The notes under the pieces: model-generated
Databases searched by the model: none
The model's input: the letters and a program-made list of their open reading frames with translations, nothing else
Told to the model about the DNA's origin: nothing
In this document: positions 126 to 31,910 of the stretch, one piece after another
Position numbering within the stretch: position 1 is the stretch's first letter
How the letters are laid out: each line of letters starts with the position of its first letter
Program-made: the position numbers and the translations under genes
DNA from: an uncultured Rikenella sp.
GTDB lineage: Bacteria > Bacteroidota > Bacteroidia > Bacteroidales > VadinHA17
Length of the DNA stretch: 64,000 nucleotides
Assembly: GCA_964537135.1 (NCBI GenBank)
Contig: CAZHZC010000013.1
Span: 2,301-66,300, forward strand
Direction of reading: 5' to 3'

Positions 126-1841
126 TCACTTCTCCTCCTGATCGGGTACTCTGAGCACGTCGCCATGGTCAACCACTATCCTCATCAGCCACTCCTGCGG
201 GTATCCCGGCCACTCTACCTTTGGCGAGATATACTTATACCCTTCGGGAACCGGTCTGACTGTCTTGGTATTTCCATCCATATATTTAACGAACAGGTAC
301 TTGTAAAGCTCCCTCCACTCTTTCACAGTATTATCGCCGGCATTGACTGAGTAGTTTGTAATCAGGTCTGTTGCCCTCTTTTCTGCTCCCCTGGCATTGC
401 TGCCAAGCAGTTCGGCAGCCTTTTCGTCTATCTCAACTGTCTCCCTGATATACTTCTGTTCAAGCTCTTTCTGTTTTGCCTGCAGGTCGGGGGTCATAAT
501 GCTTGCCCTGGTATACACGTAGTTGGTCACCTCGTTAAAGACCCAGAATGCCGCATCATAGCTGTAGGTCATCAGATCGCCATTGCCCACCTGGAATGAA
601 CGGGGTACTGATGTCATTCCGCAGTACATTGGTGAGTAGACTGTGTAGTAGGTATCATCAACACCGAACCACAGTATGCCGCCCACCGGGTCAGGCAGCC
701 ATGAGCGCGACTGTGATACGAATGAGAATGCTGTCTGCTGTGTTGATGTTGCTCTCTCATGTACATACTGCTTACCATCCACCTCCCATGTCATCGGTCT
801 CCACCGTACGGTGTTGGCGTAGGGTCCTGCACCAATATCCTTTGACATGTCCAGCGGTGTGTTCTGGTAGTAGTCTCTCATCATATCAAATACATCTTCA
901 AGGCTGAGCTTGTTGTCAGGCTTGATCCAGAGCGGCATCCTGTTTGTCAGCTCATGTCCCATGGCATAGTTGAGATAGCCACCCATATTGCTGTTCACCC
1001 TGTTAAAGCCTGCCCATACGCGTGCCTCACAGAAGCGTGCGCCGCTGAAGTCGACCGGCGCATAGACATCACTGAAGCTGAAGTCAGCATCATTGCCGCT
1101 GAACCATCCGCGGTTGCGGGCCACCTCCATCACGTCGGATGAATAGATTGTCTCAACCTCAGGGTTGTGTATCTTGCCCATCTCTGCGGAGGTGACAGAG
1201 CTTGTTCCGTTGGCCAGCGGGAAGGTCTGTATACGTGCCTGGTTGGCGTGACCTGAGATATATCCGTCAGGAATACGGCGTGCCACAAAGAGCATCCCTT
1301 TCTCTCCCGCCCCCTTGCCAATAACCTCCATGATCCATACCTCATGGGCGTCAGCAATGGAGAATGACTCACCTCCGCTGCAATATCCGTACCGCTCAGT
1401 GAGCGAAATCATTGTCTCTATCGCCTCACGTGCATTTTTTGCTCTCTGTAGTGTCAGGTAGATAAGGCTTCCGTAGTCAATAATACCGTCGGGGTTCATC
1501 AGCTCCCGCCGTCCCCCGTAGGTTGTCTCTCCTATAGCCAGCTGGTGCTGGTTCATATTGCCTACCACAGAGTAGGTCTCTGCTGCCTGCTCAATGGCGC
1601 CCTTGAATTTACCTGAGTCCCACTCATAGACATCAACAACAGTTCCTGCCTTGTACTTCATGGCGGGCCAGTAGTAGAGCTCTCCATAGAGCCCGTGTGA
1701 GTCAGCTGAATAGGTGATCATGGTAGAGCCATCCTTGCTGGCTCCCTTGGTGACCAGGAAGTTGGTACATCCATGGCTCTTCTCAGTGGCTGCAAACAGC
1801 ACGAGAAGAAAGCTCAAAATGAGTGAAGTGCTTCTTTTCAT
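126..1841 (-). CDS. C69 family dipeptidase (Ntn hydrolase), secreted
   Basis: Signal peptide followed by the N-terminal nucleophile motif CTNFLV; GNMNQHQLAIGETTYGGR and YISGHANQARI motifs. Confidence 0.9.
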   Translation of the reverse strand: MKRSTSLILSFLLVLFAATEKSHGCTNFLVTKGASKDGSTMITYSADSHGLYGELYYWPAMKYKAGTVVDVYEWDSGKFKGAIEQAAETYSVVGNMNQHQLAIGETTYGGRRELMNPDGIIDYGSLIYLTLQRAKNAREAIETMISLTERYGYCSGGESFSIADAHEVWIMEVIGKGAGEKGMLFVARRIPDGYISGHANQARIQTFPLANGTSSVTSAEMGKIHNPEVETIYSSDVMEVARNRGWFSGNDADFSFSDVYAPVDFSGARFCEARVWAGFNRVNSNMGGYLNYAMGHELTNRMPLWIKPDNKLSLEDVFDMMRDYYQNTPLDMSKDIGAGPYANTVRWRPMTWEVDGKQYVHERATSTQQTAFSFVSQSRSWLPDPVGGILWFGVDDTYYTVYSPMYCGMTSVPRSFQVGNGDLMTYSYDAAFWVFNEVTNYVYTRASIMTPDLQAKQKELEQKYIRETVEIDEKAAELLGSNARGAEKRATDLITNYSVNAGDNTVKEWRELYKYLFVKYMDGNTKTVRPVPEGYKYISPKVEWPGYPQEWLMRIVVDHGDVLRVPDQEEK

Positions 1842-20706: not shown

Positions 20707-21327
20707 ATGACTCCTGATGACCACAACGGCCTGCTGCTCCCGCTGGTAGAGGAGTTTTACTCGGTACAGGGTGAAGGCGCCAATACCGGCAAGGCAGCCT
20801 ACTTTATCAGGGTGGGCGGATGTGATATCTGTTGCAACTGGTGTGACACAAAGTATTCGTGGAACGCTGAGCTACACCCCCTGGTCACTGTGGAGGAGAT
20901 CACTGACAATGTGGTCAGGTCGGGAGCCGTGGCAGCAGTAGTAACCGGCGGTGAGCCGCTCACATGGAATATGGGTCCGCTATGCCGCAGCCTTAAGAGG
21001 CACGGCATCACCACGTTCCTTGAGACCTCAGGGGCTTATCCGCTGACAGGCGAGTGGGACTGGATCACCCTCTCACCCAAGAGAAGTTCACCCCCGCTGC
21101 CTGATATAGTTAAGAGGGCTGATGAGCTGAAGGTGGTCATACAGGATAATTCCGATTTTGAGGAGGCGGAGAAGTACAGCAGGGAGGCAGGTGAGGCGTG
21201 TGTGCTCTATCTGCAGCCCGAATGGAGTCGTTACCGCGAGATGGTGGCAGCCATAACTGAGTATGTCAAAAGGAATACCAGATGGAGGGTGTCACTACAG
21301 GCACAGAAGTTTATGCATATCCCCTAG
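20707..21327 (+). CDS. queE: 7-carboxy-7-deazaguanine synthase (radical SAM)
   Basis: FYSVQGEG, CxxxCxxC (CDICCNWC) then DTKYSW, TGGEP, ETSG, LSPK, LQPEW motifs. Confidence 0.93.
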   Translation: MTPDDHNGLLLPLVEEFYSVQGEGANTGKAAYFIRVGGCDICCNWCDTKYSWNAELHPLVTVEEITDNVVRSGAVAAVVTGGEPLTWNMGPLCRSLKRHGITTFLETSGAYPLTGEWDWITLSPKRSSPPLPDIVKRADELKVVIQDNSDFEEAEKYSREAGEACVLYLQPEWSRYREMVAAITEYVKRNTRWRVSLQAQKFMHIP

Positions 21328-23283: not shown

Positions 23284-23355
23284 AGCTAGGGCTGACCCAT
23301 AAGATCAGCCCTAGACATTCTTTTAACAGACAGATAGATAACTATCTCAAAAAAA

Positions 23356-24289: not shown

Positions 24290-25039
24290 CTACCTCATCC
24301 TGCGGGCCAGCCGTGCCGCCTTTTTTGCGTAGCGGCTTCCCGAGGCAGCTATCGCTTCGAACTGGGTGACAGCCTTCTCCCTGTTATCGGTCATCATATA
24401 GCAGAGTCCCAGATACCATGAAGCATCTTCGAGGTAGAGGTTATCATTGTGATCAATCACACTACGGAATGATCCGCTGGCCTGCTGGTAATTCTTTATC
24501 TCCATATTGGCCATCCCGTGCATGAACACCGGTTCCATCTCCTTCTGCCCCTTGTCTATCAGCTGCTCCAGGCAGACTATTGCCTTCTCATACTCCCTGG
24601 CATTGTAGGAGGCCATGGCATCCTGCATCAGTGTATTGTCAGTGGTCTCTGCCGATCTCACTGCTCCCTGCAGCTCATACCGTGCATAGTTGGCCAGCAG
24701 CAGCTCTTCCGGTGATGAGCCGGGCCTCATAATAAGGTACAGGGCTGCCGTCACCAGCGCTGCGACAGCTACTGCCGCCGCATACCTGCCGGCGCGCACG
24801 AGGCCCCGCCGTACTCTCTCTGCCGAGCGTTTTTTACTGTCAAGGTGTATAAGCTTCCTGCGCAGCTCAAGCAGACCGCTGTCTGCCAGTATCTCATCAC
24901 TCTTCTGCCTCAGGGCAGCCTCACGTTCAGCCGACAACGAATCATTTGTCAAATCAGTGAGCCATGAGTTAACCGCCCTGCCGGGTTTACCTGCAAGGTG
25001 CTGGTAGTCCGGGTTGTTTGCGTTATTCCTTTTCATCAT
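24290..25039 (-). CDS. Single-pass membrane TPR protein, putative anti-sigma factor
   Basis: About 85-aa basic N-terminus, TM helix RYAAAVAVAALVTAALYLIM, C-terminal TPR-like repeats (Y...EYEKAI..L, A.WYLGLCY); close to CHAT and ECF sigma genes. Confidence 0.7.
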   Translation of the reverse strand: MMKRNNANNPDYQHLAGKPGRAVNSWLTDLTNDSLSAEREAALRQKSDEILADSGLLELRRKLIHLDSKKRSAERVRRGLVRAGRYAAAVAVAALVTAALYLIMRPGSSPEELLLANYARYELQGAVRSAETTDNTLMQDAMASYNAREYEKAIVCLEQLIDKGQKEMEPVFMHGMANMEIKNYQQASGSFRSVIDHNDNLYLEDASWYLGLCYMMTDNREKAVTQFEAIAASGSRYAKKAARLARRMR

Positions 25040-25133
25040 ATTGTGTTTTACACAGTTAATATCCGTTCAACTCTCTGTTGTGTGCCACCTGGTGGAGAGA
25101 GCCGGCAACAATGCCCCTCTCCCTGCCAGCAGC

Positions 25134-25196
25134 TCAATATATCACTCTTCCCCAGCCCAATATCACTCCCCCCGGCCCAATATCACTCCCCGCTGC
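25134..25196. repeat. 20-nt tandem repeat, 2 near-perfect plus 1 degenerate copy (CCCAATATCACTCCCC)
   Basis: Identical 16-mers at 25156-25171 and 25176-25191; degenerate copy at 25134-25153. Confidence 0.85.
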
Positions 25197-25512
25197 TCTG
25201 CGTCATTTTCCTCTGTCACCGGACCATGCACCAGTAAAATTCTGGTAACATGCCAGTTCCTTCCACCTGCCGGTTTTTCCGTAGCTCAGCCACCACACCC
25301 TTTGCCGGTATCACTGCGTACCGCACCTCTCCGGGAGTATGGCCCCGGCTCTCTCTTCCGGGCCCTTCACCCGCTATGGGTTATGGCGTGGCTCTCTCTA
25401 CTGCCACTCTTCCCCCGTTTCCCGGATCACCCGGTAAGGCCTGTGCAGCCCTTTACCACCGGGTATAGCTTAAGACTGGCCCAGCCAGCCTTCGCTATGA
25501 ACAGATATCAGA

Positions 25513-25659
25513 TCAGATCTCAATAATTATCGGAGGCAGGGTCGGACCTATAGGGCCACCCGGGATTGGCTTGGTACCGCCACGAAGGTTAATCATCTCT
25601 TCATTTGAAAGAACAAACTCAGCAAGCTTTTCAATTTTCAGGGTTTCCATCTTTTTCAT
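25513..25659 (-). CDS. 48-aa double-glycine-leader peptide precursor, MKKMETLKIEKLAEFVLSNEEMINLRGG|TKPIPGGPIGPTLPPIIIEI (not in the ORF track)
   Basis: Hand-translated ATG 25659 to TGA 25513-25515. Leader fits L(-12)S-x-x-E-hydrophobic(-7)-x-x-hydrophobic(-4)-x-GG. AT-rich upstream region; C39 exporter 4 kb away. Confidence 0.85.
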   Translation of the reverse strand: MKKMETLKIEKLAEFVLSNEEMINLRGGTKPIPGGPIGPTLPPIIIEI

Positions 25660-25697
25660 AATTAATTAATAAATCAGGGTTTAATTGCGTTTACATC

Positions 25698-25730
25698 AAT
25701 ACGTACCCAAAAGGGGCGTTTTGTGACACA
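25698..25730 (-). promoter_or_regulatory. Candidate ECF-type promoter for the peptide gene (TGTGTCACA-N18-CGTATT)
   Basis: Bipartite motif resembling ECF -35/-10 elements, ending 38 nt upstream of the ATG; no TAnnTTTG box seen close to the start. Confidence 0.45.
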
Positions 25731-25824
25731 AAAAAACGAACTATTTTTAATTTAATTTATATTATGCTCATTAACTGCTACATACAATTACTCTTTTGTG
25801 ACTGTTTAAGAGTCTGATCTTTTA

Positions 25825-25832
25825 TATTTTTG
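25825..25832 (+). promoter_or_regulatory. -7 promoter box (TATTTTTG) for the CHAT gene
   Basis: TAnnTTTG, 27 nt upstream of ATG 25860. Confidence 0.55.
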
Positions 25833-25859
25833 CAGTCTGAAGCTAGAAGAACCACTTTG

Positions 25860-28800
25860 ATGAGTCAGAAGAGAGCCATACTGACCCTGATTTTTATTGT
25901 CTGCTGCCAATTTGTTGTCATGACGGAAGCGCCGGCGAAGGGAGCTGTTGACGGTCAGGTTACGGACCTTATAAGACTGCGTCAGCTGACCGACACCCTC
26001 TCAGGTATCCTTGAAGGGGGCAGAACCGAAAGTGACCCGGCGGCCTGTGTGACCGAGATCGAAAGAATATTGTTGACGGGTACCGTTACCGATACACTGG
26101 CCCTATCGGACGCTTTCTACTATACCGGCATTCACCATTTTCAGTCCAACAGATTCTCCAGTGCCTCCAAATCCTTCGCCCGATCGCTACGGTTCCGTGA
26201 AGCTCTCAGTCTGACAGACCGCCGCTATTCAACCGGCTACAGCAATCTGGCGGCATCACTGGCCAGGGAGGGCGACTATGAAGCTGCCCGTCAGGCAGGA
26301 ATCAGGGCGCTGGAGGTGAGGAGGCTCACCTCCGGATCCGACTCATCGGGTCTGGCTAATACCTATCTCAACCTGGCCAGTATATCGTCACAGCTGAATG
26401 ATAATGAACAGGCGATTGTGATGGCTGAGGCCGGACTGGAAATTGCACGTCTCTTCCCGCGAAAGGTCAGTGAGAAGGTGGTTGCCGACCTGTACCATGT
26501 AATAGGTCTGAGTCTGTATAATATAAATGAATACAACAAGTCACTTGCCTACTGCCGGCAGGCCCTCACCATTTACGATCGTCAGCAGGATGCCGGCATC
26601 GATTCGCGGATACTGATTCACAACACCATAGCCCTGATCTACCAGGCTGTGGGTCAGCCCGGTGAGAGTGAACACTATCTGCGTCGCGGGCTGGCCATAG
26701 AGGATGGGGCTGAAACACAGGACAAGTACCTTCTCTATCTGAATTATGCACGACTGCTTGAGGAGATGGGGAGGGTTGATGAGGGTGAGAGGCTTCTTGA
26801 GAGAGGGGTTGAGCAGGCGAGCCGCAGCTTTGGGGGAGCCAGCCGGCAATACTTCACAATGCTTGTAGGCCTGGCAGCCTTTGTTGATCAGAGCCTGCAT
26901 GACCATGTACGCTCACTGGCTCTCTATGACAGCTGCTTCTCATATGTACGCCATAACCCGTGGGACCATATAATGCGAAAGTTTGTCACGGCAGCCTATG
27001 CCACCGCACTCTACTCAGCCGGCAGGTATAAGGAGCTGCTGGAGGTGACTGAGGAGGAGGCTGCACTGCCACAGGCATCATACGAGTGGAGATACAACAG
27101 GACAGCAGACAGTAGAGCTACAGACAGAAGTGTTGCAGATGGCAGGGCTACAGATGGGAGAGTTGCAGATGGCAGAGCTGCGGACAGAAGAGTTGCAGAT
27201 GGCAGGGCTACTGATGAATGGGTTACAGACGGCATGACAGGCGAAAATGGCAGGATCTCAGCCAGTGACCTGGCAATACTGAACCTGAGATATGCCTCGC
27301 TCAATGCTCTGTCAGCCAGCAGCAGTGACACCCTGCTCATCAGGAAGGCCATCGCCACAGGCCGTCAGCTCACCTCAATCTATGATCGTCGCAGGCTGGA
27401 GATGACTGATGATGAGAGTCGTACCAATCTGAGCTCCTCATCAAGGGATGTCTATACCGGCCTGGTAGGCAACTATGCCGCCCTTTACAATGAGGGTGCT
27501 GCCCCGGGGCTGGTCAGTGCCTTTTTTGAGTTCACAGAGAGAAGCAAGATGGCGGGATTTCTCTCTTCCATACGTGAGGTTAATGCTGCCCGCTTCTCAC
27601 TGCCAGTGGAGCTGGTCACGCTCGACGCCACCATACGCAGCCAGACAGGGCTCTATCGTGAGCTGATAGCGAGGGAAGAGATCAGGGCAGCACCCGACAC
27701 ACAACGGCTGGCTACATGGGAAGGACTGATATTCAGGCTGGTCAGGTCTCGTGACTCACTGATACGTCTCTTTGAGGAGGAGTATCCGGCCTACTACAAC
27801 CTGAAATACAGAAGTGAGGTGACCCCCTCTACAAACATAACGAGGGTGATAGGGCGCCACTCAAACCTACTCAGCTATGTGCTGACCGAGACGAAGCTCT
27901 ACACCTTTGTGGCCAACCAGAGACACCAGGAGATCATCACCCATGATATTGACAGCTCCTTTATAGCATCACTCTACCGGTTTCGTGAGCTGCTAACCAC
28001 CATGCCACGTACCAGTGATACCCGTGCCCCCTTCAATGAATATATGGATCTGGCCTACAGCCTTTACCGTGTGCTCCTTGAGCCGGCCCTGCCTTATCTC
28101 AGGGGTGACAAGATTGTTATCTCTCCTGACAATATTCTCTCATATATCCCTTTTGAGGCGCTGGTTACCGAGGAGTTTCGCAGCCAGGAGATGCTCTACC
28201 GTGATGCGCCCTTCGCACTGAAGAGATTCCGCTTCTCATATATCTATAGCGTTACCCTCTCATCGGAGACGATGGAGAGGAGCAGGAGGTTCAATAACCG
28301 GGTAGCTGCATTCGCACCCTCATATTCAGCGATGGAGATTGCTGACTCACTGCTGGTATCATGGCCCACCCTGCGGAGCAATATAAGAGAGCTGCCCTAC
28401 GCCCTGCTGGAGGCAGAAGATGTGGTGAGGCAGTGTGGCGGCACAGCCTTCCTGGGAGAGGAGGCGGGTGAAGAGAGATTCAAGCGGGAGGCGGCAGGCT
28501 ACAAAATAATACACCTGGCAACCCATGCCCTGGTTGATGACCGGCAGCCGGCATTCTCAAAGATACTGTTTGCCGGAGGTGACAAGAGCGAAGATGGTAT
28601 GCTCAATACCTATGAGATATACAGCATGCACCTCAATGCCATGCTGGTGGTACTCAGCTCATGCAATACCGGTGTGGGGAGGCTGGTCAGTGGTGAGGGG
28701 ATACTGAGCCTCGCCCGCGGATTCCTCTATGCCGGCAGCCGCTCGGTGGTGATGTCAATGTGGGAGGTGGAGGATGTGTCTGCCTCGTTGGTAACACACT

Positions 28801-29587: not shown

Positions 29588-29726
29588 ACCGGCGATTTAA
29601 TTGACAAATATACAATTTCCGCAATCGATTTCTGAAAAGTGCGCTTCAGTAGCTCTTTCTTGCCCCATGGAAGTGTGTCACATTTATTTTGGATATATTT
29701 GCAACGGTTCATCTCCTCACAATTAT

Positions 29727-31910
29727 ATGGCGTACCCCTTTGTCAGACAACATGATGCAATGGACTGCGGGCCTGCCTGCATCAGTATGGTGGCACAGTG
29801 GCACGGCAAGCACTTCTCACTGGAGACTATCAGACAGAAGGCCTGGATCACCCGGCAGGGTGTCTCAATGATGGGTCTCAGCCAGGCTGCCGTGAGCATG
29901 GGGTTGACTGCTGTAGGGGTGAAGATACCTTTCAGCAGGCTGCGGAGTGATGCTCCCCTGCCAGCAGTGGCACACTGGCAGCAGAATCACTTTATTGTTG
30001 TCAACAGGATCAGTGACAGGATGGTATGGGTCAGTGACCCGGCCATCGGTCGTATCAGGATGAGCCATGATGAGTTTCTTAGGGGCTGGAGTACGGGCGA
30101 GAGAGAGGGTGAGAGGGAGGGTATGGCACTGCTGCTCACCCCGGGGCCCGGCTTCACCGATCAGCCTGATGACCCGCCTGCACGTAGCAGCTTTCGCTTC
30201 CTGCTGCCCTACCTGAAGTCCTATCGCAGACAGATCATATGGCTGTTTGCCGGACTGATAGCCTCAAGCGCCATACAGCTGGTCTTTCCCTTCCTCACCC
30301 AGGCAATAATAGACAGGGGGATAGCAGCACGTGACATACGTCTTATCTGGCTGATACTGGCCGGGCAGCTGGCACTGACGGCCGGCAGGATGGCTGTGGA
30401 GTTCAGTCGCGGCTGGCTGCTGCTTCACCTCGGCACACGGCTTAACATCAGGATAGTCTCTGACTTCCTGGCAAGGCTGATGGGGCTCCCCATCGCCTAC
30501 TTCGACACCAAGCTTAACGGTGATATCCTGCAGCGTATAGATGACAACAGCAGGGTAGAGGAGTATCTGACCTCCTCGAGCCTTACCATACTCTTCTCGC
30601 TCTTTAATTTTGTCATATTTGGTATTGTGCTGGGCATATATAGTATACCGGTACTGCTAGTATTTGTCTCCGGCACAGCACTCTATATCCTCTATGTCAC
30701 CCTCTTCATGCCTGCCCGTGAGCGGCTGGACAACAGGCGTTTTATGCAGATGGCTGAGGCGGGCAACAGGATCATCAACATTGTCAACGGGATGCAGGAG
30801 ATAAAGCTGGCAGGTAATGAGGCAGCCAACAGGCTTGAGTGGGAGAAGCATCAGAGAGAGGTTTACTCAACCCGGATCAGGGGGATGCGGATAATGCAAT
30901 TCCAGACAGCCGGCGGAACACTTATCCATGAGTCGGTAAACGTGATTATCACAATCATATCTGCCACACTGGTAATTGGCGGCTCAATGACCCTGGGGAT
31001 GATGCTGGCGGTACAGTTTATCACCGGCCAGCTGAATGGTCCGGTATCACAGATAGTGAGCCTGATGAGAGCGACACAGGATGCACGTATAAGCCTTGAA
31101 CGTATCAGTGAGGTGCATGAGATGACCTCCGAGACTGAAGATGATCAGCAGAAGGCAGCTATGCCTGCTGACGCGCCGGTGACCATCAGGGAGCTCTCAT
31201 TCAGGTATGAGGGGCCCGGCTCGCCATGGGTGCTGCATCGCCTCAACCTCAACATACCGGCCGGACGTATCACTGCTGTGGTGGGCGAGAGCGGGTCAGG
31301 AAAGAGTACCCTTCTTAAGATGCTTCTGGGCTATTACCGACCCGTTGAAGGAGAGATACTGATAGGGGGGAGGAGGCTGGAGGAGATATCTGTCTCATCA
31401 CTGAGAGAGAATACCGGTGTGGTGATGCAGGAGGGGTATATCTTCCCCGATACCATTCTGGGTAATATTGCCCCCGGTGAAGATGAGCCTGTGATGGAGA
31501 GGGTTGAGAGAGCCATTATGACTGCCAACCTCACACCACTGATAGAGATACTCCCGGCAGGCCTCAATACGATGGTGGGGCAGGGCGGTCACGGACTGAG
31601 CCAGGGACAGAAACAGCGGATACTGATAGCACGGGTGGTCTACAAGGAGCCGTCACTGCTGCTGCTTGATGAGGCTACCAGTGCCCTTGATGCCTCCAAT
31701 GAGAGAGTGATTGTTGAGAACCTGGCACAGTTTTATGCAGGACGAACGGTGGTGGTGGTGGCTCACCGGCTGAGCACGGTACGCCATGCTGACAACATAG
31801 TGGTGCTTGATCAGGGAAGGGTGACCGAGGAGGGTACCCACGATCAGCTCACCGCCCTCAGAGGTACATACTACAGGCTCATAAGAGACCAGCTGGAGCT
31901 GGGAGCCTGA
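29727..31910 (+). CDS. Peptidase-containing ABC transporter (C39 peptidase + TMD + NBD), double-glycine peptide exporter
   Basis: QHDAMDCG (Cys), NHFIVV (His), SDPA (Asp); Walker A GESGSGKST, signature LSQGQ, Walker B LLLLDE. Start set to ATG 29727, with TATATTTG at 29694-29701. Confidence 0.95.
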   Translation: MAYPFVRQHDAMDCGPACISMVAQWHGKHFSLETIRQKAWITRQGVSMMGLSQAAVSMGLTAVGVKIPFSRLRSDAPLPAVAHWQQNHFIVVNRISDRMVWVSDPAIGRIRMSHDEFLRGWSTGEREGEREGMALLLTPGPGFTDQPDDPPARSSFRFLLPYLKSYRRQIIWLFAGLIASSAIQLVFPFLTQAIIDRGIAARDIRLIWLILAGQLALTAGRMAVEFSRGWLLLHLGTRLNIRIVSDFLARLMGLPIAYFDTKLNGDILQRIDDNSRVEEYLTSSSLTILFSLFNFVIFGIVLGIYSIPVLLVFVSGTALYILYVTLFMPARERLDNRRFMQMAEAGNRIINIVNGMQEIKLAGNEAANRLEWEKHQREVYSTRIRGMRIMQFQTAGGTLIHESVNVIITIISATLVIGGSMTLGMMLAVQFITGQLNGPVSQIVSLMRATQDARISLERISEVHEMTSETEDDQQKAAMPADAPVTIRELSFRYEGPGSPWVLHRLNLNIPAGRITAVVGESGSGKSTLLKMLLGYYRPVEGEILIGGRRLEEISVSSLRENTGVVMQEGYIFPDTILGNIAPGEDEPVMERVERAIMTANLTPLIEILPAGLNTMVGQGGHGLSQGQKQRILIARVVYKEPSLLLLDEATSALDASNERVIVENLAQFYAGRTVVVVAHRLSTVRHADNIVVLDQGRVTEEGTHDQLTALRGTYYRLIRDQLELGA

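Follow-up and report, generated by a model that had tools for sequence, protein, structure and literature searches.

A conserved double-glycine leader peptide gene next to a predicted periplasmic TPR-CHAT protease and an ECF-type sigma factor in Bacteroidota

The subject of this analysis is a small gene of an uncultured Bacteroidales bacterium. It lies in a stretch of 64,000 nucleotides (contig CAZHZC010000013.1 of assembly GCA_964537135.1, uncultured Rikenella sp.), which is called the window below. The gene encodes a precursor peptide with a double-glycine (GG) leader, it is a conserved protein-coding gene, and a homologue is found on the opposite strand just upstream of a gene for a TPR-CHAT protease in 88 of the 88 loci that were informative. 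From sequence and from analogy with known systems we read it, at slightly less than an even chance, as the precursor of an unmodified, exported, Pro-rich peptide of about 20 residues, which would be the partner of a periplasmic TPR-CHAT protease and of a pair consisting of a sigma factor of the extracytoplasmic function (ECF) type and its anti-sigma factor. The window belongs to the core chromosome of its host (52% GC; RNase Y, PyrBI, YidC and aconitase are present).

The peptide gene and its conservation

A preliminary description of the window had proposed an open reading frame (ORF) of 48 codons plus stop at positions 25513-25659. This ORF is real, and its translation is exactly MKKMETLKIEKLAEFVLSNEEMINLRGGTKPIPGGPIGPTLPPIIIEI, as had been written there. 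The strand had been missed: the ORF lies on the minus strand, and the plus-strand reading of the same interval was ruled out, as its frame is broken by a stop. Because orthologues begin at the position of Met4 of the window sequence (MKTLK.../METLK...), the true start is probably this Met4 at 25650, which would give a precursor of 45 amino acids.

A lone ORF of 48 codons is unremarkable, since 195 ORFs of at least 30 amino acids are found in 21 kb. The gene is identified as a conserved protein-coding gene by the conserved position of its homologues together with the asymmetry of its substitutions. Among 18 gap-free orthologues, the ratio of non-synonymous to synonymous change (pN/pS) is 0.18 in the leader, 0.63 in core residues 1-10 and 0.13 in the last ten residues of the core. 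Synonymous change is abundant, and up to four synonymous codons are used at invariant Pro positions. The leader and the C-terminal decapeptide of the core are under purifying selection, and the first half of the core is variable.

The homologues were recovered from six-frame translations of loci that had been collected via the neighbouring CHAT protein (31 from genomes and 80 from metagenomes). A locus was considered informative if it extends no less than 700 nucleotides upstream of the CHAT gene; this applies to 88 loci, and all of them contain the peptide gene. The median distance from it to the extrapolated start of the CHAT gene is about 190 bp. The linkage, which had been suspected in the preliminary description, holds even in loci whose CHAT protein has an identity of only 30-35% to that of the window.

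The 87 distinct homologous precursors have a leader with the consensus MKTL-x(5-9)-F-x-EF-x-LS-NEEMI-x-VRGG, in which L-4, M-7, E-8, S-11, L-12 and the GG are nearly invariant. The window peptide carries all of these residues, with the GG at -2/-1, in agreement with the earlier reading, and thus shows the pattern of a double-glycine leader (about 15-30 residues with a GG end, hydrophobic residues at -4, -7 and -12, an acidic residue at -8). The composition of its core was also given correctly, with six Pro, six Ile, three Gly, an internal GG and no Cys, Ser or aromatic residue. There is one Lys, one Glu and no Arg, and the net charge is 0. Cores of the family have 12-24 amino acids and a net charge of -3 to +1, and they are essentially free of Cys.

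The preliminary description had raised the question whether cores are hypervariable. They are not, and their C-terminal half is strongly conserved: in the clade of the window, a variable 9-10-mer is followed by PT[RK]PP[VI]IIE[IFL]-COOH, and the element PP[VI]x[IL] recurs throughout the family, whose C-terminal consensus is PP[VI]x[ILFV]-COOH. Cores of a deeper clade read [DE]G[DE]PI[VI]-x-P-x-x-PP[VI][KRI][IL]-COOH. Three loci from Marinilabiliales (Draconibacterium and Mariniphaga) have a different, charged core (...KPGSRDKDIF.E/D...). At 533-850 (minus strand) of the Draconibacterium locus L033 there are two tandem precursor genes, which differ in their leaders, have identical cores (GTPKSRDKDIFDFDAE) and share a single upstream promoter motif.

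The peptide family is nearly absent from protein databases. An exhaustive phmmer search against 1.84 billion protein representatives gave 11 matches, eight of which are peptides of the same family, and a word-indexed protein search with the peptide returned only the peptide itself. The exact peptide has already been called as a gene on four public Logan metagenome contigs; the earlier label "unannotated" was therefore right for the ORF track on which it was based, but not for these contigs. The leader of the 48-residue ORF matches the NCBIfam model TIGR04149. When the six-frame translation of the window was searched for leader-like ORFs, the ORF itself scored E 4e-29 and the next best hit E 0.5, and no second leader-like ORF or other candidate substrate for a Peptidase-C39 ABC transporter (PCAT) was found in this translation. 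The leader match and the lack of a second such ORF are further signs that the ORF did not arise by chance.

In Bacteroidales, the gene is part of a syntenic block in the order OmpA-like protein, kinase, anti-sigma-like protein, peptide; CHAT, sigma factor; PCAT, DUF349, YidC. As the whole block is syntenic, the module is a stable feature of the core genome and not an accessory island. The Marinilabiliales loci have different flanks, yet the peptide gene or genes, CHAT, anti-sigma and sigma genes stay together; no PCAT, kinase or DUF349 gene was found nearby in them. Three more distant TPR-CHAT proteins (P0075, P0076 and P0077) are encoded in unrelated contexts without a GG-peptide module, and the association with the peptide is therefore confined to one subfamily in Bacteroidota, whose members combine a signal peptide, TPR-CHAT and a transmembrane (TM) anchor. 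In one metagenome-assembled genome (L032, 8313-11431) the CHAT gene is split into three ORFs, owing to a frameshift, a pseudogene or an error of assembly. The other genes of the module at this locus, for the peptide, the sigma factor, the anti-sigma-like protein and the PCAT, are intact.

Protease, sigma factor, promoter-like motif and other neighbours

The coordinates of the gene and of its neighbours are given in Table 1. Apart from the CHAT/TPR gene and the exporter, the module contains several elements that the preliminary description had missed, namely the ECF-type sigma factor, the anti-sigma-like membrane protein, the predicted periplasmic topology of the CHAT protein and the dedicated promoter motif.

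The CHAT protein is composed of an N-terminal signal-like segment, a TPR array, a helical scaffold, the CHAT domain, a C-terminal TM helix and a basic tail (YRGPRS). As the two terminal segments are the only hydrophobic ones, most of the protein is predicted to lie in the periplasm, with an anchor in the inner membrane. The hydrophobic termini are kept in orthologues (79/81 at the N-terminus, 77/81 at the C-terminus), and a His889/Cys935 dyad (numbering of the protein with 1060 residues) is invariant in the orthologue alignments. Its AlphaFold2 model has a pLDDT of 80, and the best Foldseek match is DdvA (8rot), followed by separase and the Craspase protein Csx29. At 27114-27211 the gene contains a 30-nucleotide tandem repeat (3.3 copies) that encodes an insert rich in RATD/VADG. 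The insert falls in a loop that AlphaFold2 predicts to be disordered (residues 403-464), it is absent from all orthologues, and it seems to have arisen when the repeat expanded recently, in frame, within a loop at the surface.

The sigma gene adjoins the CHAT gene in all loci that extend far enough. Its product has no Pfam match at the default threshold, and its match to TIGR02937 (E 1.9e-7) is below the cutoff. It has more than 1,200 homologue clusters, several of which carry Sigma70_r2, Sigma70_r4_2 or ECF domains and the names of sigma factors, and the Draconibacterium orthologue (L033) passes the Sigma70_r2 threshold. An AlphaFold2 model of the window protein matches AlgU, sigmaE, SigL, SigH and SigW. 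On the strength of these homologues and of the predicted fold, we assign it as a divergent ECF-type sigma factor.

The anti-sigma-like protein has a cytoplasmic N-terminus of about 85 residues, one TM helix, a periplasmic linker and then three to four TPRs. The central TM helix is kept in 78 of 81 orthologues, and the orthologues carry an N-terminal helix motif in the style of anti-sigma factors (IE.Y..GE....E..WF..EL..N..L..EV). No Cys/His zinc ligands were found in the window protein. The homologue in Marinilabiliales has a weak match to zf-HC2, and there is an overlap of 17 nucleotides between its gene and the sigma gene. Within the otherwise variable linker between TM helix and TPRs, the motif Y121-E-x5-R128-S129 is kept in 95-100% of the 81 orthologues and is a candidate protease cleavage site.

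An orthologue alignment and a set of 90 regions upstream of the peptide gene and its orthologues yielded the strongly conserved motif TTTTTyGTGTCACAAA-N(9-15)-(yrTGTA or GTACGTA), a putative promoter of the peptide gene with the short form TGTCACAAA...GTA. A count in 1.47 Mb of related loci gave 71 copies of the composite motif. In 70 cases it lies directly upstream of a peptide gene, and the remaining copy sits at the edge of a contig, in the place expected for the peptide gene. It lacks TAnnTTTG, the housekeeping -7 box of Bacteroidetes. Boxes of a housekeeping-like type are conserved on the sigma strand (TATATTTG, 29612-29605, 18 nucleotides before the TTG start of the sigma gene) and, in Bacteroidales, in front of the PCAT gene (AAATATAAATATCTTTAC). 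A different motif is found in Marinilabiliales, where GGGTTACCTTTT-N9-CrGAATATAT precedes both the peptide gene and the sigma/anti-sigma operon. An autoregulated ECF promoter is usually recognised by a motif that is shared with the operon of the sigma factor itself, and we thus infer that the sigma factor of the module acts on the peptide gene. Mariniphaga has a third copy of this motif (L034 14480-14590 and L035 14392-14403, both on the plus strand) in front of a unit of about 60 nucleotides. This unit contains only a 9-codon ORF and ends in a terminator (a GC hairpin and a run of T), and it is a candidate small RNA of the same regulon.

The 5'-untranslated region (5'-UTR) of the peptide gene contains a second conserved element, which recurs as (A)TTACCCTGA in a distant clade and has the general form (A)TTA(A)ACCCTGA. 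The 10-mer ACCCTGATTT from this region (25671-25680) recurs perfectly at 25884-25893, where the divergent CHAT gene starts, on the sense strand of that gene; this recurrence may be due to chance.

Table 1. Features of the peptide locus in the window (positions of the 64,000-nucleotide stretch)
Feature	Coordinates	Strand	Description
Soluble histidine kinase, 273 aa	23356..24177	minus	HisKA + HATPase (Pfam); no TM or sensor domain
Anti-sigma-like protein, 249 aa	24290..25039	minus	TPR Pfam matches; single TM helix
Lineage-specific spacer, 473 bp	25040..25512	minus	GC-rich (56%); between peptide stop and anti-sigma-like gene
Precursor peptide gene	25513..25659	minus	48-codon ATG ORF + TGA stop (25515-25513)
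Core, 20 aa	25575-25516	minus	TKPIPGGPIGPTLPPIIIEI
Leader, 25 aa from Met4	25650-25576	minus	METLKIEKLAEFVLSNEEMINLRGG
Conserved 5'-UTR element	25674..25686	minus	AATTAAACCCTGA; ~15-27 nt upstream of ATG; invariant or near-invariant columns
Promoter/operator-like motif	25700..25729	minus	GTGTCACAAA (25729-25720), N13, GTACGTA (25706-25700)
TPR-CHAT protease, 1060 aa	25860..29042	plus	Divergent from peptide gene; Pfam CHAT (1.5e-59) + TPRs
Divergent ECF-type sigma-70 family factor (by homologues and model), 188 aa	29021..29587	minus	TTG start; convergent with and overlapping 3' end of CHAT gene
PCAT	29601..31910	plus	Pfam C39 (2.5e-34), ABC_membrane, ABC_tran; NCBIfam bacteriocin-export families

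The PCAT gene lies 3.9 kb from the peptide gene and is syntenic in Bacteroidales relatives. The Gln, Cys, His and Asp of its C39 domain align with those of PCAT1 (4ry2), so that the catalytic residues are intact, and the earlier view of a genuine double-glycine precursor with a C39 exporter in its vicinity is supported. The listed TTG start (29601) overlaps the short intergenic region between the divergent sigma and PCAT genes (29588-29670), and for this reason the true start of the PCAT gene is probably the ATG at 29667.

We also looked for enzymes that would modify the peptide. As the preliminary description had stated, no enzyme that modifies ribosomally made, post-translationally modified peptides (RiPPs) was found nearby, which could be confirmed for about 12 kb on each side. 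The only radical-SAM gene encodes a protein of 206 amino acids 4 kb away (20707-21327), which was considered as a maturase and rejected, as it is QueE. Apart from it, no radical-SAM/SPASM maturase is present beside the precursor within the annotated 25 kb or in the syntenic blocks. A defence system was rejected as well, because PADLOC gave no system matches but only generic hits to TPR and ABC-ATPase proteins.

In all Bacteroidales loci, the next gene downstream of the anti-sigma-like gene is that of the histidine kinase, which is absent from the Marinilabiliales loci. There is no response regulator near it, and its membership in the module is uncertain. A strong terminator-like hairpin follows the kinase gene at 23286-23314. 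The spacer that separates the peptide gene from the anti-sigma-like gene is outside the conserved module. None of the related loci, in which the gap measures about 190-350 bp, has a homologue of this spacer. It contains a 20-nucleotide tandem repeat at 25139-25191 (found with TRF). The RNA of its minus strand has an unusually stable fold (z -4.8). An Rfam search gave no match in the region 24900-25900, and a single tRNA, located elsewhere, in the whole window. A plus-strand ORF of 170 amino acids at 25014-25526, which covers the spacer and the 3' end of the peptide gene, was rejected as spurious (low complexity, no homologue in relatives), and a gene of 158 amino acids that the gene caller placed on the opposite strand of the spacer looks spurious, too.

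A possible signalling circuit and its alternatives

For the signalling reading given at the outset, a cycle can be drawn from these components, in which the peptide would be both the input and the autoinduced output of the pathway. The PCAT would cut the leader after Gly-Gly and move the core TKPIPGGPIGPTLPPIIIEI across the inner membrane, a step that is proposed because of the leader consensus and the intact catalytic residues of the C39 domain. In the periplasm, or after release and re-entry, the free C-terminus PPxIxE/K-I/L/F-COOH would be bound by a TPR surface, either that of the membrane-anchored TPR-CHAT protease or that of the anti-sigma-like protein; the preliminary description had suggested a TPR groove. 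The CHAT domain would then cleave the anti-sigma-like protein in its juxtamembrane linker, with Arg128-Ser129 as the candidate site. By analogy with DdvA, DegS/RseA and Craspase/Csx30, this may be the site-1 cut that leads to the release of the sigma factor. Finally, the freed sigma factor would transcribe the peptide gene from its dedicated promoter. This last step, which would amount to autoinduction, is suggested because the motif is exclusive to the peptide gene and because its Marinilabiliales equivalent is common to the peptide gene and the sigma operon.

Several points weigh against the signalling reading. Every mechanistic step in it (expression, cleavage, export, binding and proteolysis) is inferred from sequence and context. 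As the whole Bacteroidales block is syntenic, including the unrelated genes for the OmpA-like protein, DUF349 and YidC, adjacency in this group is partly a matter of vertical inheritance, and the independent support for the linkage rests on the three Marinilabiliales loci. The anti-sigma assignment of the window protein is weak at the sequence level. The spacing of the promoter motif is unlike the canonical ECF geometry AAC-N16/17-CGT and the motif is partly palindromic, so that some other regulator could use it as an operator. Neither a membrane-fusion nor an outer-membrane partner of the PCAT was found nearby. The peptide may therefore never leave the periplasm, and its role would then be autocrine or internal and not that of a quorum signal. 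A comparison of the penultimate residue of the peptide (E, K/R or hydrophobic) with columns of the CHAT and anti-sigma alignments, which is confounded by phylogeny, gave no usable co-variation. The best columns merely track one subclade, and a charge-complementary column in the TPRs of the anti-sigma-like protein (window residue 173) was discarded, as it is not consistent in the clade of the window.

The explanation that competes most directly with peptide activation of the protease uses the same linkage evidence. The peptide might be a substrate or a pseudosubstrate of the CHAT domain, not its activator; we judge this to be improbable, but worth keeping in mind. As a substrate, it would lose its variable N-terminal half to the CHAT protease, and the conserved C-terminal decapeptide would be freed as the active species. 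As a pseudosubstrate, it would fill the active site as securin does in separase, and the protease would stay off until the peptide is exhausted. The two-part structure of the core, in which a nearly invariant [DENG]-P junction separates the variable half from the conserved one, would suit such a role, and the TPR-CHAT relatives separase and Craspase are regulated by bound pseudosubstrates or partners (PMC11506125). However, Pro at P1' is unfavourable for most proteases, the penultimate residue varies between E, K, R and I and thus offers no consistent P1, and the gene's own sigma-type promoter is left unexplained unless this explanation is combined with the signalling circuit.

For the remaining alternatives we see much less room. 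The genomic context points to signalling rather than killing, as the preliminary description had preferred. An unmodified class-II-like bacteriocin or Pro-rich antimicrobial exported by the PCAT, with CHAT, sigma and anti-sigma proteins as mere neighbours or regulators of production, is very unlikely, even though the peptide has a double-glycine leader, a PCAT is encoded in the vicinity and modifying enzymes are absent, and though GG-leader toxins of Bacteroidetes, the bacteroidetocins, are described in PMC6671954. The cores are short and neutral to acidic (12-24 amino acids, -3 to +1), have no Cys pair and are neither amphipathic nor cationic, and no immunity-like small membrane protein was recognised nearby. 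The locus is a conserved block of the core chromosome over a deep clade and not a variable accessory island, and a core C-terminus that is conserved across lineages with about 30% identity in CHAT would be unusual for an arms-race weapon. The Pro-rich antimicrobial that had been offered as an alternative in the earlier account fits poorly for the same reasons of charge, immunity gene and location. A RiPP of the TIGR04149 family, modified by a radical-SAM maturase elsewhere in the genome, has even less to recommend it. The 48-residue form does score above the cutoff of the model (26.5 bits against 25), but the match is limited to the leader (positions 1-29 of the 43 in the profile), the 45-residue form with the conserved start scores only 17.6 bits, and 14 of 54 family members match at E <= 0.01. 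QueE is the only radical-SAM/SPASM protein encoded in the window, the syntenic blocks contain none, and the cores lack the Cys on which such maturases usually act. We give the least credit, close to none, to a cis-acting upstream ORF that would regulate the operon of the anti-sigma-like protein and the kinase and have a functionless product. The ORF has the orientation of these two downstream genes, and no terminator-like site was found on its strand between it and them. Still, it is conserved at the amino-acid level, including a full export leader with its GG site, the gap that follows it ranges from 190 to 470 bp, and the peptide genes of Marinilabiliales do not lie upstream of the anti-sigma gene at all.

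A more specific version of the signalling circuit, which we regard as rather doubtful as a whole, takes the self-made linear peptide, exported by the PCAT, as the activating ligand of the TPR-CHAT protein; this periplasmic, caspase-like site-1 protease would cut the membrane anti-sigma factor, and the ECF sigma factor so released would transcribe the peptide gene. If this is true, it would be a peptide autoinduction circuit (quorum or autocrine) of a new architecture in the core genome of a large group of Bacteroidota, and for the first time a class of ligands would be identified for a TPR-CHAT protease that is extracytoplasmic. To our knowledge, peptide signalling is considered rare in Gram-negative bacteria, and we know of no case in Bacteroidota. 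TPR-CHAT proteases are widespread in bacteria, but as far as we know triggers have been established only for the CRISPR-linked Craspase. DdvA is the one characterised periplasmic example, and its signal is explicitly unknown (PMC11506125). The candidate ligand, exporter, protease, likely substrate, transcriptional output and target promoter are all located within 8 kb, and with about 90 natural sequence variants on offer, the idea of a peptide-gated, caspase-like site-1 protease is directly testable. The family also marks a systematic gap in annotation: all the loci examined contain it, but 1.84 billion predicted proteins include only about ten of its members.

Comparison with known systems

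The components of the module are of known kinds, and the peptide family has no profile model of its own. In the literature on CHAT in combination with C39, leader peptide, double-glycine, periplasm or Bacteroidetes, we found no description of the module. Class II bacteriocins and bacteroidetocins have a cationic or amphipathic core of about 25-60 amino acids, often with a disulfide, and an adjacent immunity gene, features that do not apply to the window peptide, and Pro-rich antimicrobials are strongly cationic and rich in Arg and Pro, whereas the peptide family is acidic to neutral. The TIGR04149 precursors (GG_sam_targ_CFB) of Bacteroidota have related leaders in the style of MK..L....LS.EEM..I.GG. 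They differ in that the window locus lacks a radical-SAM maturase, its core is unrelated, and most members of the family are below the cutoff of the model.

The RRNPP systems (Rap/Phr, PlcR/PapR, Rgg/SHP) share the principle that a TPR domain recognises a short peptide cut from the C-terminus of a small precursor; a Rap phosphatase appeared with its TPR domain as a weak match in our search. However, their receptors are cytoplasmic regulators of Firmicutes with a helix-turn-helix or phosphatase output, the peptides are re-imported by Opp, the precursors use Sec or PptAB export instead of a GG leader and a PCAT, and neither a protease nor a sigma factor is involved. The two TPR proteins of the window are both extracytoplasmic by predicted topology, and neither has a helix-turn-helix or phosphatase domain. 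The streptococcal systems ComC/ComAB and BlpC employ pheromones with GG leaders and PCAT exporters. They have in common with the window gene the leader, cleavage and export by a C39-ABC protein, a short unmodified peptide and autoinduction, of which all but the leader are predictions for the latter. ComC and BlpC are sensed by membrane histidine kinases in Gram-positive bacteria, whereas the window module has a Gram-negative host, a predicted sensor in the form of a periplasmic TPR-CHAT/anti-sigma pair, and an ECF sigma factor as output.

For the proteolytic branch, three systems are relevant. In Craspase, Cas7-11 acts together with the TPR-CHAT protein Csx29, which cleaves the anti-sigma-like Csx30 and frees the ECF-type CASP-sigma (PMC10028731). 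Csx29 and the CHAT protein of the window are structurally similar according to Foldseek, but Craspase is cytoplasmic, CRISPR-associated and activated by an RNA-guided target, and it has no peptide, exporter or membrane anchor. The DegS-RseA-sigmaE pathway of E. coli uses a membrane-anchored periplasmic site-1 protease that is activated by specific free peptide C-termini and cleaves a single-pass anti-sigma factor, which leads to the release of an ECF sigma factor (PMC10028731). DegS has a trypsin fold with a PDZ sensor, whereas the window protein is predicted to have a caspase fold with a TPR sensor. The ligands of DegS are the C-termini of misfolded outer-membrane proteins and not a dedicated gene product exported by a PCAT, and its pathway lacks an autoinduction loop.

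The closest known system is DdvA-DdvS of Myxococcus. In DdvA, a transmembrane anti-sigma factor of M. xanthus, cleavage by the CHAT domain has been proposed as a signal-induced site-1 step, and DdvA-like proteins have been reported only in Myxococcota and one Comamonas (PMC11506125). The window module, which belongs to Bacteroidota, has the same type of periplasmic TPR-scaffold-CHAT part with a His-Cys dyad, which in structure matches DdvA best. In both cases there is coupling to an ECF-type sigma factor, with a proposed site-1 cut by CHAT before intramembrane proteolysis. DdvA combines anti-sigma domain, TM helix and TPR-CHAT in one polypeptide, whereas the window module has a separate TPR-CHAT protein with a C-terminal anchor and an anti-sigma-like protein with a small TPR domain of its own. 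A natural fusion like that in DdvA is found in P0077 (L116 226-3666, from a GC-rich organism in a metagenome), which joins a zf-HC2 anti-sigma domain, a TM helix, TPRs and CHAT; the next gene but one downstream in this locus has a faint match to Peptidase_C39_2. Finally, DdvA controls a defence island with CBASS and CRISPR, whereas the window module comes without defence genes recognised by PADLOC and has a dedicated peptide and a PCAT instead.

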